A stretch of DNA of 64,000 bases from an uncultured archaeon. GTDB lineage: Archaea; Asgardarchaeota; Thorarchaeia; Thorarchaeales; Thorarchaeaceae. Below are positions 2,729 through 34,280 of the stretch, piece by piece. How positions within the stretch are numbered: the first letter of the stretch is position 1; every line of letters begins with the position of its first letter. The translations under genes and the position numbers were made by a program. The stretch is taken from contig CAZLEV010000011.1 in assembly GCA_964558645.1 (NCBI GenBank), forward strand, positions 56,385 to 120,384, read 5' to 3'. The notes below the pieces were generated by a model that had not been told where the DNA came from, ran no database searches, and saw only the letters and a list, made by a program, of their open reading frames with translations.

Positions 2729-3631
2729 CAAAAGGTCTGTTTCATGCTGGAAAGAGAATTCGAAGCCAATCTCGTCGGCATGTCTTAGAACTAGTTCATC
2801 CACCATTTTCGACACGAGGAATCTGGCAGCAGTTCTGTCGATACCGGATAGGTCTATGATTTCGGCCACAGTACTTGAGCCATCGAACCGTGAAAGCAGT
2901 CTGACGATTTCGGGATATTGATCTGTGATTGCATCGGAGGGCTCGCCCACCTTGATAAGAACGCAGTCATCACTGACCTGTCGCTTGAGTTGTACGAGTC
3001 CATGATGAATGAGAACTGACAGAAGAGCAATGGACTCATTCTGGGGTAGTGGAACGCTCTCTATGATCTTGCCGACCTGACGTTTGCCATTGATGTATTT
3101 CTCAAGAATTCCAAGGTGTGTGTCAATCTTTCCCACTCGATAGTTGATTCTTCGCCCATCCGTAAGGCACGGGATGAGCTCTGGGTCAACCTTGGCAAGT
3201 GGAAATACAGTGACAATACTCAATGCGAACTCACGGAAGACTCTGATATCCCCCTCATAGTGTTCCAGAATGTTAGAATACCTCTCCTCGAATTCCACAA
3301 TCAAATCGACAAGTTTCTTTCGATATGGCTCTGGATCGGCAGTTTCATTCAGGCCGATAACTGCAAGAACCTCATCCCCAATCTCGAAGATCACGCTGGA
3401 ACGGCCCCACTGGACAGTTCTCAGTCCGTTCTTGGCGACGGTCATTATTGCCTGGATGAGAGCCGCCAACAGGTCGGGGTCAACCTCCCTGCGGGAATCA
3501 CTCGCAAGCTTGGAACTCGCCGGTCCATCTGCATAGGAAACCCGAACTAGCAGTTCACCGCTTATCAAACGGATCATCATGATATACCTGATACTGGAGT
3601 TATGTGATTGCCCATACATACAAGCTCCCAA
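2723..3631 (-). CDS. Longin-like domain + two winged-helix repeats (NPRL2-like architecture); start possibly ATG 3619
   Basis: Longin pattern YIMMIRLISGELL...DLLAALIQAI...EFEERY...YEGDIRVF; two C-terminal repeats YINGKRQVGKII and RFDGSSTVAEII. Confidence 0.65.
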   Translation of the reverse strand: MGACMYGQSHNSSIRYIMMIRLISGELLVRVSYADGPASSKLASDSRREVDPDLLAALIQAIMTVAKNGLRTVQWGRSSVIFEIGDEVLAVIGLNETADPEPYRKKLVDLIVEFEERYSNILEHYEGDIRVFREFALSIVTVFPLAKVDPELIPCLTDGRRINYRVGKIDTHLGILEKYINGKRQVGKIIESVPLPQNESIALLSVLIHHGLVQLKRQVSDDCVLIKVGEPSDAITDQYPEIVRLLSRFDGSSTVAEIIDLSGIDRTAARFLVSKMVDELVLRHADEIGFEFSFQHETDLLL

Positions 3632-28624: not shown

Positions 28625-28737
28625 GATATCTTCCTCATTCCAAGTTACCGTCCAGCGGACATATAGGTCTATGTCGCTTGGTCGAATCAACGGTACCTTT
28701 TTCTCTGGGTGAGTGCAGCATCAGGCCGGTGGCTCAT

Positions 28738-30117
28738 ATGTCTGACAGGCTCTTTGGAACTACGGGCGTGCGTAAGATCTACGGTGAGGAGTTCTCCCTT
28801 GATATGGCCCTTGACCTTGGTCGGGCACTTGGCACATATCTCAAGAGAGGAAACGTGCTTCTTGCCCGAGACGCAAGGACCACCGGCTCCATGGTTGAAG
28901 ATGCATTCTCAGCGGGTGTGCTCTCAACAGGAGTCAACGTCCTGCGAGCTGGCGTGGTTCCAACCCCGACTTTGGCATTCCTCACAAGCTATCTGGATAT
29001 GGACACAGGAGTTATGGTCACAGCATCTCATAACCCCCCTGAGTACACGGGCATCAAGTTCTGGGGTTCAGACAGCATGGGCTACACTCCTGATATTGAA
29101 AGACGACTCGAGGAGATATACCATTCACATGACTTCATAGCAGCTGCATGGGACGGGCTGGGAGAGGAGGAATATCTCGATGCACCCGAGTGGACACACA
29201 TCGATGAGCTTGTGAAACGGACCGATGTTGCGGCCATTCGTCAGAAGCAATTCAAAGTAGTTGTGGATCCAGGGAATGGAGCGGCGTGTGTGCTCACACC
29301 CTATCTCATGAGAGAGCTGGGTTGCAGCGTCATCACGCTCAACGGTCAGCTGGATGGACACTTCCCCGGTCGAGAGAGCGAACCGGATGAATCAACACTT
29401 GTTGACCTAGCCAACATGGTCAAATCATCAGGAGCCGACCTTGGCATTGCTCATGACGGGGATGGGGACAGAGTCGTCTTCGTGACTGAACACGGAGAGG
29501 TTGTCAGAGGAGACCGTACTATCGCTCTTCTTGCTCGAGACTCTCTCCAGAGAGAGCAGGGCGGAGTCATCGTCACCACTGTTGACAGCTCAAAGGTCGT
29601 GGATGAGACCGTTGAGCAAGCAGGAGGACGCACAATCAGGACGCCTGTCGGCGACATTCAAGTTGCTGTTAAGATAAGAGAAGAGAAAGGTCTGTTCGGA
29701 GGAGAGGCCTGTGGGGTCTTCATCCATCCAGACTTCCATCTGGCGCCAGAGCCCTTTCTCACTTCCTGCCATGTTCTTGAGATGATGGCATCACAAGGAA
29801 AGGGTTTCGGAGAGCTGATCTCAGAGATACCCGTATATCCCCTCAAGAAATCGAAGCTGCAATGCCCCAACAGCAAGAAACCTGCAGTGATGGATAGGCT
29901 TGCGGAAGTTCTACCAGATGAAATGAATGATATTACTGACATACTTACTGTGGACGGGCTTGGCATATCCCTCAAAGGGGGGTGGCTCCTTGTCAGGCCG
30001 TCAGGTACCGAACCAGTCATCAGAATAACATGCGAAGCCCAGTCTGAAGAGGCCGTTCAAGAGATTCTTGACAGAGCAACAAGTGTCATCAGCAACACGA
30101 TTGCGACGACTAGTTGA
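28738..30117 (+). CDS. glmM: Phosphoglucosamine mutase / phosphohexomutase
   Basis: LFGTTGVR, TASHNP, DGDGDR, GEACG, RPSGTEP; sugar specificity inferred. Confidence 0.82.
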   Translation: MSDRLFGTTGVRKIYGEEFSLDMALDLGRALGTYLKRGNVLLARDARTTGSMVEDAFSAGVLSTGVNVLRAGVVPTPTLAFLTSYLDMDTGVMVTASHNPPEYTGIKFWGSDSMGYTPDIERRLEEIYHSHDFIAAAWDGLGEEEYLDAPEWTHIDELVKRTDVAAIRQKQFKVVVDPGNGAACVLTPYLMRELGCSVITLNGQLDGHFPGRESEPDESTLVDLANMVKSSGADLGIAHDGDGDRVVFVTEHGEVVRGDRTIALLARDSLQREQGGVIVTTVDSSKVVDETVEQAGGRTIRTPVGDIQVAVKIREEKGLFGGEACGVFIHPDFHLAPEPFLTSCHVLEMMASQGKGFGELISEIPVYPLKKSKLQCPNSKKPAVMDRLAEVLPDEMNDITDILTVDGLGISLKGGWLLVRPSGTEPVIRITCEAQSEEAVQEILDRATSVISNTIATTS

Positions 30118-30209
30118 ACACCAGGTGCGCAAGAGAGCAAATCAGCAAATGCAGACAAGCTTTATAGCACAACAGGGTCTCAGACACCTTGAAAACGAGG
30201 TCTCATATC

Positions 30210-30620
30210 ATGAGTAATGGCGATGATGATTTCATCAAATCGGAGTTTGAATGGGCTCTGAAGGACCCTACCGAAGAGAAGCTACGAGGCCTCGGTGAGA
30301 TTGTCGATACCATCACAAAACGGCTTGTTGAAGCAATAACTGAGCTTCAGAGCGACCTCTACGAGCTTCAGACTGCCGTACAGAGTATGGAGTCGAAACT
30401 GAACTCGCTGGACTCCCGGGTGGCAACTGGAGGAGTGGCACCATCAGCTACATCTTCTGCATCCTCAGCATCTTCCGCAACAGAAACTCCAGATGAACCC
30501 ATGGCTAGAGCACCGACGCCCAAGCCGGCTCCGGCTGCAGGCCCGGGCGGCATGATGTCTGAACTGAAACAGCTGCTTGCTGCAAGGAGAAGAAAAGCTG
30601 AGGGTGGAGGCGGGGAATAA
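30210..30620 (+). CDS. Small coiled-coil protein with Ala/Ser/Pro linker and C-terminal Ena/VASP-like F-actin-binding (WH2-like) motif
   Basis: Heptad LQSDLYELQTAVQSMESKLNSL; tail GGMMSELKQLLAARRRKAE; TATA-like TTTATAG near 30161. Confidence 0.7.
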   Translation: MSNGDDDFIKSEFEWALKDPTEEKLRGLGEIVDTITKRLVEAITELQSDLYELQTAVQSMESKLNSLDSRVATGGVAPSATSSASSASSATETPDEPMARAPTPKPAPAAGPGGMMSELKQLLAARRRKAEGGGGE

Positions 30621-30625
30621 CCCGC

Positions 30626-31300
30626 TCAGATCAAGCGTCGGACATGGTTTCCCGGATAGAACGGGCCTGTATGTTTAAGTAGAGAAACGGAGAATGCTTC
30701 GGCCCTCTCGCAGGCCGATTGGACTCCTCTCAACCGGGTTCGTGCATCGTAGAATCTCTCGTAGTAACCGCCAGCCTTGCTGGTCTGGCTCTTGTGACAG
30801 CGTAATCCCTCTAATGCGGTATTATAGCTCTCAGTGACACTGACCATCACATTAGGTCGTGAGAGAAGAGTGTTGACCTCCATATGATAGATACGACTGA
30901 TTCGATGCGCTCTCTCGAACCGAGTCACGTGTGATGCCCATTCAGCTGCGTCGGCAACGATCTGCGCGCATGCTACATGGTTTCTATTGTAATCCTTCTC
31001 GGAGTGGGTGATAATAATGTCTGGACGCCACTCGAGGATTGCTTGAATGATTAGCTTCTCCACACTCCTGTCAACAGCAAAGTCATCTCGCTCCCCTGTC
31101 AGAAGATTACGGATACCTAGTATCTTACATGCCTCCTTCAGCTCTCGGTTTCGAGCTGGACTTCCTGTGAGGCACAACAGATCCACGTCTACTCCCTGAC
31201 TGCTATGAGACGCTATCGTTCCACCGGCACCCAAGCATTCATCATCGGGATGCGCAGTAACAACGAGAATTGAGCCATCGTCAGAGGGATTCATGGTCAT
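30626..31300 (-). CDS. bshB1: PIG-L family deacetylase, BshB1-like (GlcNAc-malate deacetylase)
   Basis: AHPDDECLGAGGT, RNRE..A..ILG, RPDIIITH, AEAF; divergent from bshA; second motif is non-canonical NRNH. Confidence 0.72.
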   Translation of the reverse strand: MTMNPSDDGSILVVTAHPDDECLGAGGTIASHSSQGVDVDLLCLTGSPARNRELKEACKILGIRNLLTGERDDFAVDRSVEKLIIQAILEWRPDIIITHSEKDYNRNHVACAQIVADAAEWASHVTRFERAHRISRIYHMEVNTLLSRPNVMVSVTESYNTALEGLRCHKSQTSKAGGYYERFYDARTRLRGVQSACERAEAFSVSLLKHTGPFYPGNHVRRLI

Positions 31301-31383
31301 CTCAGACCCAGTTCTACTAATCAAGCTTTGGCCTGACCATTTGTCTTAAAACCCCCCGTTTGCTGTTCAGTACAGTGACCAGC

Positions 31384-32544
31384 ATGAGGATAGGAGTCAA
31401 TCTATATGCCTCAGTGGGCGGCTCAGGCTACCTCGCGACGCGCTTGGGACAGCACCTTGCAGACCGTGGCCACGAGATTCATTTCATCACCTACCAGAGG
31501 CCGTTTAGCCTGATGTGGGAGCAAGCACGAGGTGTCTACGTTGACCTCGTGGACAGTTTTGATTATCCGCTCTTCAAGTCAACTGGAACCCCCTACACCA
31601 TGACCCTTACATCAAAGATTGTAAAAGTGGCTCGCGATTCCAAACTCAATCTCATCCACTCGCACTATGCAATCCCTCATGCTATGGCCGCATACATGGC
31701 AAGAGAGATCATCGGTATCCCCTATGTGGTAACACTACACGGTTCAGATGTCCACACCCTTGGACTCGATCCTGCATATCGCCCCGTTGTTAAGCACACG
31801 GTAGAAGAAGCAGATGGTGTCACAGCAGTTTCAGAGTTCCTCCAGAAGAAGGCCTATGAGGAACTCGGCATCGAAAGGGAGATTCATGTCGTCCCTAACT
31901 TCATCGATGTTCAAAGATTCACTCCCATGGAGGGAGTGCGACTCACAGTGGAGAGCGGCTGTGTGTCTCTTCGCAGATCAGAGGAACCCGAAGATCTTCA
32001 TCCAGACGAGATGGTGCTGTTGCATGCATCGAACTTCCGTCAAGTGAAGAGAGTGGTCGAGCTCGTAGAGATCATGAGGATCGTAGTCGACCACTATCCT
32101 GATACGCGGCTAGTGATTGCAGGGGATGGACCCACCCGCATGCATGTTGAGCGACGAATAGAGGCCCTTGACCTCTGCCAGAATGTGCATCTCTTGGGAG
32201 TGAAGAGCAACATGAGAGAGATCATGTGTTCATCAGATATCTTTCTGCTCAATTCTACCTTAGAGGGCATGCCACTGGTCCTTTTGGAGGCTATGGCATC
32301 CGAACTACCAGTTATCACGACACCCGCAGGAGGCATACCAGAGCTTGTACGCCCAGGGAAGGACGGTATTGTCACGAAGGGCTTCGAGAAGGAAGAGTTT
32401 GCGGGTGCAATCCTAGAGTTGATAGAACATGATGCCCGAAGAAAAGAACTGGGCAAGGCGGGACGAAAGAGAGTTGTTGAGCAGTACTCAGCTGAGAAGG
32501 TTGTGCCCATGTATGAGAGAGTCTTTGATAGAGCAGTGGAATGA
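31384..32544 (+). CDS. bshA: N-acetyl-alpha-D-glucosaminyl L-malate synthase (GT4)
   Basis: BshA-type motifs GGSG..AT.LG..LA.RGHE.HFIT, YPLF, HYAIPHA, TLHGSD, TAVS, H.SNFR.VKRV. Confidence 0.88.
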   Translation: MRIGVNLYASVGGSGYLATRLGQHLADRGHEIHFITYQRPFSLMWEQARGVYVDLVDSFDYPLFKSTGTPYTMTLTSKIVKVARDSKLNLIHSHYAIPHAMAAYMAREIIGIPYVVTLHGSDVHTLGLDPAYRPVVKHTVEEADGVTAVSEFLQKKAYEELGIEREIHVVPNFIDVQRFTPMEGVRLTVESGCVSLRRSEEPEDLHPDEMVLLHASNFRQVKRVVELVEIMRIVVDHYPDTRLVIAGDGPTRMHVERRIEALDLCQNVHLLGVKSNMREIMCSSDIFLLNSTLEGMPLVLLEAMASELPVITTPAGGIPELVRPGKDGIVTKGFEKEEFAGAILELIEHDARRKELGKAGRKRVVEQYSAEKVVPMYERVFDRAVE

Positions 32545-34280
32545 TAGAACGGAGATGCCAACTTTTGAGAGAGAGCGTAGCTGAAGTCTATAAAGACTAC
32601 ATCTGGAAAGAGGAAATGCAGGATGCCGCCCAGTATCTCTATAGTTGCCCGCCAGTCTATTTCGGCGGTCTCAAGGAGAGAGTAGGAAGACTCCGAGAGG
32701 AATACTTAGAGACGCACTGGTTCACTGACGAACGAATGCAGATACTTGAGAACACCCTGGAAAGGACAAGTCGCAACCTGGGTGCTCTAACACCAGCAGT
32801 TAGGAGTAGAATCTCAGAGCTTCGACATGGAGCCATAGAAGGAGCACACCAGAGCATTGCCTTCGGCGGCCCATGCTATGTTCTGAACAAGGCAGCAACA
32901 GCATCGATACTTGCAGATGTCACGTCTGATGATGATATTCGCGTAGCCGCGTATTTCTTCGTTGCAGACTATGATGAGGTCCAGGCTGAACTGATCAACA
33001 CAAGGACCCCACTGCTGGGATCTTCAGGCAATCTGCTCAGTATTCCGGTTCCCAAGGAGTTCAAGCATTCGCCCGTCAGTGTTCTACCCCTTCCTGAGCA
33101 TACTTGGTACGAAGAGGCAGAAGAGAGTATCCGGATGGGGTACAGACCGATGATCAAAGACCTCGACAACAGGGCGCGCATCATATACGAAGAGAGACTC
33201 GAGCAGATTCTCTCCATAACAAGATGGAGTTTCGTAAACTCAGACACACTGGGGGAATGGGCGCGACGAATCCTAGCCCGTCTGTTCAATGTCGAGGGAA
33301 ACTTGGGAATACCAATTGTCGCGTATTCAGACCCTCAGATACGGAAGCTGGCAACTCTTGGAATGGAATTCCTTCTGAAGAAACAGAACCGAGAGAGATT
33401 CTTAGAGGCCCAGGATCAAGCAACCGACAGAATCATCGAACTAGGTCTGGAGCCCGGCTCGGGGAGAAGAGATCGCTCCTACGTTCCGTTTCTATACGAG
33501 TGTCCGGAGAAAGGCTGCAACAGGAGTAGATTCGAACTGCAGTATTATGCCCGGGAAGACACTGCGACGCTGTCAGGTAGGTGCCCGTCATGCCATCAGT
33601 ACTTCACAATCGAAGTTTCAGCAGATAATCCTGACTTGAGTGACCATGCCGACTACCTATCTCCTCGTGTAGACTCGCGGCAGTTCATTGTGGACATGAT
33701 GATTCCCACTATGTGCCATATTGGAGGGCCAGGTGAGACCGCCTATTACGCCCAGGTGATTCCCGCTGCCGACGCTCTAGACATCCCATTCCCGGAGTTT
33801 GTGAAGTATCCACGGCTCTTCTTCAACACACCATGGAGTGAAGCTCTGGCAAACCAGTTGGAGAACAGGGGTGAGCCGGTCTTGCATGGTCGCACGCTCT
33901 TCAAACTGCTGGGGAAGTCAAGTGCAGCCAGAAGAAAAGAGAACTATGATGAGATGAACTCCGCCATCAAGAAACTGGGCAACCATATCAGAGACCGGTA
34001 CGATGTCATAGTGAAGAGGGTGGCGGAGATAGAGAAGCAGAGAGAAAACTCAAGCGGTGAAGAAGACGAGGAACTTCAAGGTATCAAGTTTGACCTCGAA
34101 ATGTACCTCAGCTGGGCATATGGGCGATATTCTGCAGAGAAGTCCGTGCAGGAGTCCTCTTGGTCCTGGATAGAGTGGGCAATAAACTCTGGACTGGCGG
34201 ATCTGTTCGGTCCTTACGAGAGAAGCTATGTTGAGCAACTTAAGAATGGAGCCACGATGTGGATAAACTTCATGACATAG
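32541..34280 (+). CDS. bshC: Bacillithiol biosynthesis cysteine-adding enzyme BshC-like
   Basis: GAHQ...GGPCY..NKA, D.DEV, SPRVDSR, P..CHIGGPGETAYYAQ, coiled coil, VQE; ATGA overlap with bshA. Confidence 0.82.
   Translation: MIERRCQLLRESVAEVYKDYIWKEEMQDAAQYLYSCPPVYFGGLKERVGRLREEYLETHWFTDERMQILENTLERTSRNLGALTPAVRSRISELRHGAIEGAHQSIAFGGPCYVLNKAATASILADVTSDDDIRVAAYFFVADYDEVQAELINTRTPLLGSSGNLLSIPVPKEFKHSPVSVLPLPEHTWYEEAEESIRMGYRPMIKDLDNRARIIYEERLEQILSITRWSFVNSDTLGEWARRILARLFNVEGNLGIPIVAYSDPQIRKLATLGMEFLLKKQNRERFLEAQDQATDRIIELGLEPGSGRRDRSYVPFLYECPEKGCNRSRFELQYYAREDTATLSGRCPSCHQYFTIEVSADNPDLSDHADYLSPRVDSRQFIVDMMIPTMCHIGGPGETAYYAQVIPAADALDIPFPEFVKYPRLFFNTPWSEALANQLENRGEPVLHGRTLFKLLGKSSAARRKENYDEMNSAIKKLGNHIRDRYDVIVKRVAEIEKQRENSSGEEDEELQGIKFDLEMYLSWAYGRYSAEKSVQESSWSWIEWAINSGLADLFGPYERSYVEQLKNGATMWINFMT

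Follow-up and report, generated by a model that had tools for sequence, protein, structure and literature searches.

The P0001 gene and the layout of its product

The DNA analysed in this work (the window) is a stretch of 64,000 nucleotides on contig CAZLEV010000011.1 from an uncultured archaeon of the family Thorarchaeaceae, whose genome assembly (GCA_964558645.1) amounts to 3.63 Mb in 37 contigs and is 92.8% complete. The gene we are concerned with, P0001, encodes a small protein that consists of a helical N-terminal part, a linker containing APTPKPAPAAGP and, before the stop codon, the segment GGMMSELKQLLAARRRKAEGGGGE (Table 1). A first-pass annotation, made from the nucleotide sequence alone, had drawn attention to this open reading frame as a possible actin bundler or elongation factor, in which a coiled coil is followed by a near-copy of the F-actin-binding motif (FAB) of Ena/VASP proteins; the reading frame is real and its translation is exactly as was described. 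Judged from its sequence, P0001 is a Thor-branch member of an undescribed, Asgard-restricted family of small, putative adaptor proteins.

The ATG at 30210 was preferred as the start codon over an upstream TTG (30189), which would add seven residues, because the homologues begin at an equivalent MS(N/K/D) position. The sequence upstream suggests that P0001 may have its own promoter in the 92-bp gap 3' of a glmM-like gene.

Table 1. Positions of P0001, its putative expression signals and the segments of its product in the window
Feature	Position	Strand	Details and basis
P0001 coding sequence	30210..30620	+	136 amino acids plus stop
TTTATA, archaeal TATA-box-like hexamer	30162..30167	+	43 nt before the ATG; consensus match read from the sequence
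GAGGT, putative Shine-Dalgarno-like element	30197..30201	+	8 nt before the ATG; read from the sequence
Conserved N-terminal block, residues 7-43 (DFIKSEFEWALKDPTEEKLRGLGEIVDTITKRLVEAI)	30228..30338	+	family alignments; AlphaFold2 helices 4-17, 20-72
Long helix, residues 20-72, putative coiled-coil oligomerisation domain	30267..30425	+	AlphaFold2; 3-4 hydrophobic repeat
Disordered Ala/Ser/Pro tether, residues 73-112	30426..30545	+	AlphaFold2 confidence; alignment
C-terminal motif GGMMSELKQLLAARRRKA, residues 113-130	30546..30599	+	alignments; AlphaFold2 helix 114-132
Short acidic, Gly-rich tail EGGGGE	30600..30617	+	read from the translation

AlphaFold2, run on P0001 with a 29-row family alignment, predicted helices at residues 4-17, 20-72 and 114-132, with a predicted template modelling score (pTM) of 0.38. 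The predicted local distance difference test score (pLDDT) was 88-98 over residues 21-70 of the long helix and below 50 in residues 81-102, which are disordered in the model, and its block mean over residues 121-130 of the C-terminal helix was 84. The long helix comprises 53 residues, and a heptad pattern with continuous 3-4 hydrophobic spacing can be read from its sequence; Pfam gave sub-threshold matches only, to coiled-coil families. The N-terminal coiled coil of the first-pass annotation fits this single long helix and its hydrophobic repeat, with the proviso that the coiled coil is a prediction, and from the model we infer that the long helix oligomerises.

The N-terminal block contains seven residues that are invariant in the alignment of the Thor branch (F13, W15, A16, L17, D19, P20 and G29), the first of which is nearly invariant throughout the phylum. 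This block probably either serves as another interaction surface or forms the beginning of the oligomerising helix. The tether holds a semi-conserved (I/M)A(K/R)AP..PKP segment, in which A96 and P97 are conserved at 90% or more. The C-terminal motif is an amphipathic helix followed by a basic cluster, and the codons of its E118-L119-K120 core are at 30561-30569. On a helical wheel M116, L119, L122 and L123 fall on one face, with E118 and K120 at the two edges of that face, a pattern that would suit a groove-binding helix with specific rim contacts. Loki-type orthologues have a poly-Asp end in place of the EGGGGE tail. When the genome of the window was searched with a profile of the motif there was a single occurrence, with 36.7 bits; the next match had 9.3 bits.

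Distribution and conservation of the family

In a word-indexed search P0001 had at least 130 homologues with lengths of 118-170 amino acids, all of them labelled as hypothetical and all from Asgard bins, with the exception of one partial 'Bathyarchaeota' record; the closest ones carry Thorarchaeota labels. Each of the 120 closest homologues listed keeps the C-terminal block or a near variant of it, nearly all in the form GG(L/M)MGELKxLLAARR(R/K)KA, thus the motif singled out by the first-pass annotation is indeed conserved in orthologues. The N-terminal block, (D/E)FEWALKDPTEEKLR, is also kept in these 120 proteins.

To look beyond the Thor branch, the Thor profile (A1) was searched against 400 Asgard genomes. 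The family was found in 81 of the 85 genomes of the archaeon's own family, with E-values between 1e-28 and 1e-59 apart from two much weaker matches, and many genomes of other Asgard families matched with E-values of 1e-8 to 1e-14 over profile positions 18-130, which include the end motif. The 21 distant loci examined hold open reading frames with the same layout as P0001, and P0001 can be aligned end to end with the Loki-type orthologues. The distant orthologues end in P-x-S-L-R-G-A-I-M-G-E-L-K-x-L-F-A-K-R-K-K or close variants of it. Many of them have true polyproline tracts (e.g. GGPPPPPPGGPPGGPPGGP), and in the Loki-type members GPPPPP-type tracts lie directly before the end helix, at the position of the tether. 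A filter-free profile search of 1.84 billion representative proteins yielded 490 family representatives at E <= 1e-3. In the ESM Atlas the whole Loki orthologue matched unnamed Asgard clusters only, and the C-terminal part alone had no match.

In an alignment of 74 diverse members with a mean column identity of 15%, E118 is invariant, L119 and K120 are conserved at 90% or more, and the phylum-wide consensus of the motif reads R-x-(A/S)-(I/L)-(M/Q/N)-x-E-L-K-x-L-F-x-K-(R/M/L)-(K/R)-(K/R); the Thor form of the end helix is GG-M-M-G-E-L-K-x-L-L-A-A-R-R-R-K-A. The N-terminal block and the C-terminal helix are the two most conserved segments of the family, the C-terminal motif being the highest. 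P0001 scored 200.8 bits against profile A1 and 91.3 bits against the 74-member profile A3 (both profiles include P0001), and it has all the characteristics of the full profile: the N-terminal block, the long helix, the Pro-rich tether and h-h-x-E-L-K-x-L-(F/L) followed by a basic patch. Full-text literature searches that combined Asgard archaea with VASP or WH2, or with polyproline and coiled coil together, brought up no description of the family. Tandem paralogues lie side by side on the same strand in two genomes that belong to a single Asgard family (L023:85-447 and 599-973 in G124; L022:2809-3168 and 3297-3599 in G123).

Fusions to GTPases and other proteins

The complete module, from the N-terminal block to the end helix, was also found fused to the C-terminus of Arf/RagA-like GTPases (P0173, P0183, P0215, P0227 and P0254; 399-464 amino acids, each with an N-terminal extension), and two GTPase-fusion fragments (P0252 and P0269) carry it as well. 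In these fusions the family profile matches from about position 11 to 131. The N-terminal extension gave a sub-threshold helix-hairpin-helix match in Pfam only in P0227. In P0243 the module is placed after HEAT repeats. With the exception of one HEAT-repeat protein, all scanned single-stretch long matches of the representative search were Arf/RagA-like GTPases, and a divergent GTPase fusion occurs in genome G143. Such fusions suggest that a GTPase switch can use the module as its output. In Lokiarchaeum ossiferum, Lokiactin was found to co-purify with an ARF GTPase (UYP48373.1; PMC13716822), which could not be identified as a carrier of the module.

A search of longer proteins with the N-terminal 80 residues of the Loki orthologue did not find a gelsolin fusion. 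The word-indexed search of longer proteins with the C-terminal 40 residues of P0001 gave no match at E <= 10, which is uninformative as the database is too large for a 20-residue motif. In the Protein Data Bank a sequence search with the last 36 residues returned only a chance match to a nanobody linker and no solved FAB-containing chain. Genome G143 encodes, at about 1.2086-1.2115 Mb of C1, a two-domain gelsolin (L051:1112-2176) that has a Pro-rich repeat and, at its C-terminus, a Cys-rich (CxxC) segment. The gene 134 bp downstream of it (L051:2311-3999) is for a 705-residue protein that contains the motif internally, as PPPPGSAPKSPQTLRGGMTEELKTLFSKTK. The motif of this long protein is kept in the same genus only, and its adjacency to the gelsolin gene was seen in the G143 genome only.

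Comparison with Ena/VASP proteins

In human VASP the G-actin-binding motif (GAB) comprises residues 223-239, the FAB residues 259-278 and the tetramerisation coil residues 343-380 (PMC10340426); the FAB sequence given by the first-pass annotation was confirmed by the same source. The FAB 20-mer was slid over all six-frame open reading frames of the genome (3.29 million residues, 2.69 million windows of that length), and the C-terminus of P0001 came out as the top match, with an ungapped BLOSUM62 score of 49 vs. 36 for the runner-up. By exponential tail extrapolation 0.018 windows are expected to reach a score of 49 or more. Gapped Smith-Waterman alignment gave a similar picture (52 for P0001 and 39 for the next). 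Within this genome the match to FAB is more than chance. Among 120 Thor-type proteins the median FAB score was 43 and the maximum 61. With the Thor motif profile the score of FAB itself was 17.1 bits and that of the best unrelated open reading frame 15.2 bits (no composition correction).

The likeness can be followed along the chain: P0001 has a G-rich lead-in, an amphipathic helix and ARRRKA, and with one gap it aligns to FAB with 12 of 19 residues identical (14 of 19 in the Thor homologue P0016). In both proteins a Pro-rich region lies upstream of the motif, and an oligomerising helix, which is a prediction in P0001, is part of the same chain, which would make the motif multivalent. The differences are equally clear. 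As the first-pass annotation had pointed out, the order of domains is reversed, the coil of P0001 preceding the motif. EVH1 (WH1) had no Pfam match in P0001 at E <= 10, and the protein is only 136 residues long with residues 1-72 helical; VASP_tetra had no Pfam match either, the sole long helix being N-terminal to the motif. The VASP GAB peptide scored about 0 bits against both motif profiles, and a genome-wide scan with GAB did not single out P0001.

Comparison with other actin-binding proteins

The WH2/beta-thymosin proteins (WASP, WAVE, WIP, thymosin beta4) offer a second comparison, as the family's short helix-plus-basic motif could fit the hydrophobic cleft of actin. The WH2 helix has the form R-x-A-L-L-x-x-I. 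The Loki-type R-G-A-I-M-G-E-L resembles it, in several lineages the motif ends in M-K-K or L-R-R, reminiscent of LKKT/LRRV, and, as in the WASP family, the motif can follow a polyproline tract. Of the WH2 pattern, in which an amphipathic helix is followed by a short linker and an LKK(T/V)-type motif, a part can be recognised in the family, namely R-x-A-h-h-x-E-L and then F-x-K-(M/L/R)-(K/R)-(K/R), the spacing and the helix length of which differ from the WH2 consensus: with 19 residues the helix is predicted to be longer, the basic patch is not preceded by a linker containing Gly, and the Thor members lack the R-x-A lead-in.

In archaea, the nearest mechanistic precedent by analogy is arcadin-2. 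In Pyrobaculum this protein has a small conserved C-terminal helix, which follows a non-conserved unstructured linker and binds, even alone, in the hydrophobic groove of the archaeal actin crenactin (PMC5173319). The likeness is one of layout and not of sequence comparison, and there are differences: arcadin-2 belongs to Thermoproteota and to crenactin, it is encoded in the arcade cluster next to its actin whereas the P0001 gene is not linked to actin, and its binding depends on a Trp, a residue that is absent from the P0001 helix.

CCDC53/WASHC3 (Pfam PF10152), a subunit of the WASH complex, which is an actin-nucleation-promoting complex, is also small, and its N-terminal coiled coil leads into a Pro-rich region of low complexity. 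Sub-threshold matches to CCDC53 were seen in 11 of the 74 family members, with a best E-value of 3.7e-5. The match of the GTPase-fusion fragment P0269 (residues 140-229) reached 21.0 bits vs. the cut-off of 24.6, and P0001 itself has a sub-threshold match over residues 43-107. All matches of the family are, however, below the Pfam cut-off, and other coiled-coil families match more members. The CCDC53 matches, extending over coiled-coil and Pro-rich sequence, where spurious matches are common, may be compositional.

Actin genes, gene neighbourhood and expression

The genome encodes a eukaryote-like actin (G000 C4:182223-183326), which scores 438 bits against Pfam Actin, 526 bits against rabbit skeletal actin and 616 bits against the solved chain 'HC1 actin'. 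It keeps the cleft segments LSLYASGRTTG and SVWIGGSILASLKTFQKMW, which we take to be the counterparts of the rabbit actin cleft residues Y143-T148 and I341-M355. On the opposite strand, some 1.5 kb away from this actin gene, is the gene of a two-domain gelsolin (C4:184807-185328), and another gelsolin-domain match, the third in the genome, was noted at C9:77274-77486. Pfam Profilin had no match in this genome nor in the controls, thus this search is uninformative.

Actin was found in 359 of the 400 Asgard genomes and in 88 of the 90 high-quality ones. The distribution of the family relative to actin-encoding archaea, a comparison proposed by the first-pass annotation, shows that every lineage that bears the family carries actin. 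Because actin is near-universal in Asgard genomes, this co-occurrence is uninformative.

The order glmM - P0001 gene - bshB - bshA is conserved across the Thor family. P0001 converges on a PIG-L deacetylase gene, the two stop codons being separated by 5 nt. In the window the region 30626-34280 holds this PIG-L deacetylase gene (minus strand), a GT4 glycosyltransferase gene and a BshC-like gene, which make up a bacillithiol-type bshB/bshA/bshC cluster, and the gene of the glmM-like mutase (28678-30117) adjoins this region. In Loki-type genomes the orthologue follows a same-strand gene for a protein of about 206 amino acids (L031:693-1310, identical to G138 2628036-2628656; L020:3550-4167), which is by Pfam an Elf1-like zinc-ribbon protein in two of these genomes.

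The positions of the actin and gelsolin genes in genome G138 agree with the order of locus tags published for the cultured L. ossiferum B35. Its orthologue of P0001 (G138 2628799-2629257) was assigned to the tag GNAMCCOK_02219 on the basis of genome position and the mass of its neighbour, not by accession. GNAMCCOK_02218 is listed with 24.01 kDa vs. the 24.03 kDa calculated for the upstream open reading frame, and tag 02268, which is 50 tags (52 open reading frame calls) downstream of 02218, is listed with 53.82 kDa vs. a calculated 53.86 kDa. GNAMCCOK_02219 was quantified in all 16 of 16 proteome columns with a mean log2 value of 18.47 (Supplementary Table 2, preprint 10.1101/2025.11.30.690169), and it ranks approximately 400-460 in the abundance-sorted proteome table. 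The neighbour inferred to be GNAMCCOK_02218 was mildly enriched in the Lokiactin co-immunoprecipitation (log2 1.36, adjusted p 0.034).

Discussion

The anatomy of P0001 and the conservation of its family make it, in our opinion, highly probable that the protein works as an oligomeric hub with floppy arms, which end in partner-binding helices. The long helix would oligomerise, and the resulting complex would hold out the end helix in at least two copies, each on a flexible arm about 40 residues in length. With its hydrophobic face (M116, L119, L122, L123) the end helix would dock into a groove on a partner that is itself highly conserved; contacts at the rim would be made by E118 and K120, and the affinity would be raised electrostatically by the basic cluster.

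Actin is the candidate that we rate highest as this partner, from sequence and analogy, with chances that we judge to be somewhat short of even. [quoted passage not shown] The protein would then be a multivalent actin tether, which bundles or captures filaments, and in the lineages with true polyproline tracts profilin-actin could also be fed to the end helix. This combination of a polyproline tract with a short, basic amphipathic helix, rendered multivalent through an oligomerising helix, is the design of the VASP and WASP families. Of the actin bundler or elongation factor that the first-pass annotation had proposed, there remains a conserved protein, the layout of which fits multivalent actin regulators; the likeness to FAB, on the other hand, is marginal at the profile level.

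Several observations speak against actin as the partner, and a first group of them concerns the motif. The FAB scores of 29 non-Thor orthologues (median 29, maximum 38) are at background, thus the term 'near-copy' used by the first-pass annotation is apt for the Thor branch (49 vs. 36) and not for the other Asgard orthologues. Against the pan-Asgard motif profile FAB scored 10.9 bits, less than the best unrelated open reading frame (11.4 bits; no composition correction), and with the composition correction of HMMER it scored only 4-5 bits. It follows from the profile and the non-Thor scores that the likeness to FAB is largely due to flanks specific to Thor (the Gly run and A-R-R-R-K-A). In VASP the E-L-K core of the phylum corresponds to E-M-N, with M in place of L119 and N in place of K120. 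Pfam WH2 (PF02205) had no match at E <= 10 in P0001, P0121, P0127, P0151, P0126 and P0141, and the 25 families to which most of the 74 members have matches at E <= 1 do not include WH2. Judged on these comparisons P0001 is not a member of the Ena/VASP or WH2 families; it may still work like them.

A second group concerns the context. There is no conserved linkage of the family gene to actin, gelsolin or profilin genes. The tether of P0001 has no run of three or more prolines, thus profilin recruitment and the role as an elongation factor, the latter suggested by the first-pass annotation, are weak for this member. [quoted passage not shown] GNAMCCOK_02219 is absent from the Lokiactin co-immunoprecipitation rows listed, which run from a log2 ratio of +10 to -1.06 and beyond which there are 841 further rows. 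We consider this a real negative: the inferred L. ossiferum orthologue is expressed and was not enriched with actin under those conditions. It must be noted that weak or salt-sensitive contacts could escape co-immunoprecipitation.

The same absence would also be accounted for if the end helix bound another conserved protein, such as an Arf/Rag-like small GTPase, an ESCRT/Vps4 component or PCNA, and the family were a general oligomeric tether. We think this unlikely on balance, and yet it is the alternative that has to be taken most seriously. The invariant E-L-K and the hydrophobic stripe indicate a specific groove-binding helix and do not identify the groove, the fusions in these data are to small GTPases and a HEAT-repeat protein and none is to an actin-binding domain, and the neighbouring genes are unrelated to actin. 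Gene order, on the other hand, links no candidate partner to the family, and two of the candidates fared badly when examined by inspection. For PCNA, several lineages have a Q-x-x-L-x-x-L-F form, and Q-S-E-L-K-A-L-F resembles the PCNA-interacting peptide (PIP) box, Q-x-x-L-x-x-F-F, with basic residues after it. The PIP-like Q is, however, not conserved (M, Q, N or I are found at this position), PIP position 7 is Leu instead of an aromatic residue, with L-L at positions 7-8 in the Thor members, and the invariant E and the K stand at positions that are normally variable, which is atypical of PIP boxes. For ESCRT, the spacing of the MIT-interacting motif 1 (MIM1) does not fit. Both the MIM1 and the PIP-box readings of the motif were rejected as poor fits.

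A membrane could also take the place of a protein partner. The C-terminal targeting helices of MinD and FtsA and the polybasic tails of Ras/Rho GTPases are models for a membrane-targeting amphipathic helix with a polybasic patch, in which case P0001 would be a membrane-anchored coiled-coil scaffold with its specific interaction made through the N-terminal block. Such a function would agree with the make-up of the extreme C-terminus, in which a flexible linker leads to an amphipathic helix and then to three to five basic residues, with the attachment of the module to the C-terminus of Arf/RagA-like GTPases, a place at which membrane anchors are frequent in eukaryotic small GTPases, and with the fact that the orthologue was not recovered with actin among the rows listed. 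Membrane-targeting helices conserve composition and not residues, whereas here the Glu is invariant and E-L-K near-invariant at a background identity of 15%, and the acidic tails of many members (DDDD, EGGGGE) would work against an attachment to acidic lipids. For these reasons we regard membrane targeting as quite improbable. It is very improbable that the end helix packs, within or between chains, on the N-terminal block or coiled coil of the protein itself, with a structural or autoinhibitory role and a coincidental likeness to FAB: the N-terminal block and the C-terminal helix are indeed the two best conserved segments and always travel together, also in the GTPase fusions, but the monomer model has a pTM of 0.38, in the 705-residue protein of one genus the end motif is present and the N-terminal block is not, and a disordered tether of at least 40 residues would be unusual in an intramolecular bundle.

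With actin as the partner of the end helix, the family could be extended to a more general proposal, which we regard as possible but doubtful. The family would be a third class of Asgard actin regulators, small oligomeric proteins that capture, bundle or elongate Lokiactin through WH2/FAB-like end helices on proline-rich arms and that are in some lineages wired to Arf-like GTPases, and it would represent a prokaryotic counterpart, possibly an ancestor, of the polyproline-plus-WH2 logic of VASP, WASP-family and formin-type factors. The first-pass annotation had raised the possibility of an archaeal precursor of EVH2/WH2-type regulators; a motif of about 17 residues is too short to show descent. 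The distribution of Ena/VASP in eukaryotes is patchy, and because of this vertical descent is not the simple reading.

Comparative genomics has found profilins and gelsolins as the main Asgard actin regulators, and among Asgard proteins WH2-like motifs are mentioned only inside gelsolins; formins and Ena/VASP filament polymerases belong to the better-studied eukaryotic machinery, and the mechanism of actin-based motility in Asgard archaea needs investigation (PMC13716822, PMC9433394). The family described here could fill this gap, being phylum-wide and well expressed and combining arms rich in proline with a predicted oligomerising helix and a basic amphipathic helix that is nearly invariant. 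If the helix binds another partner, the family still defines a conserved Asgard interaction module, which includes GTPase-fused forms. If it binds actin, the design of 'polyproline plus short actin-binding helix' would predate eukaryogenesis.

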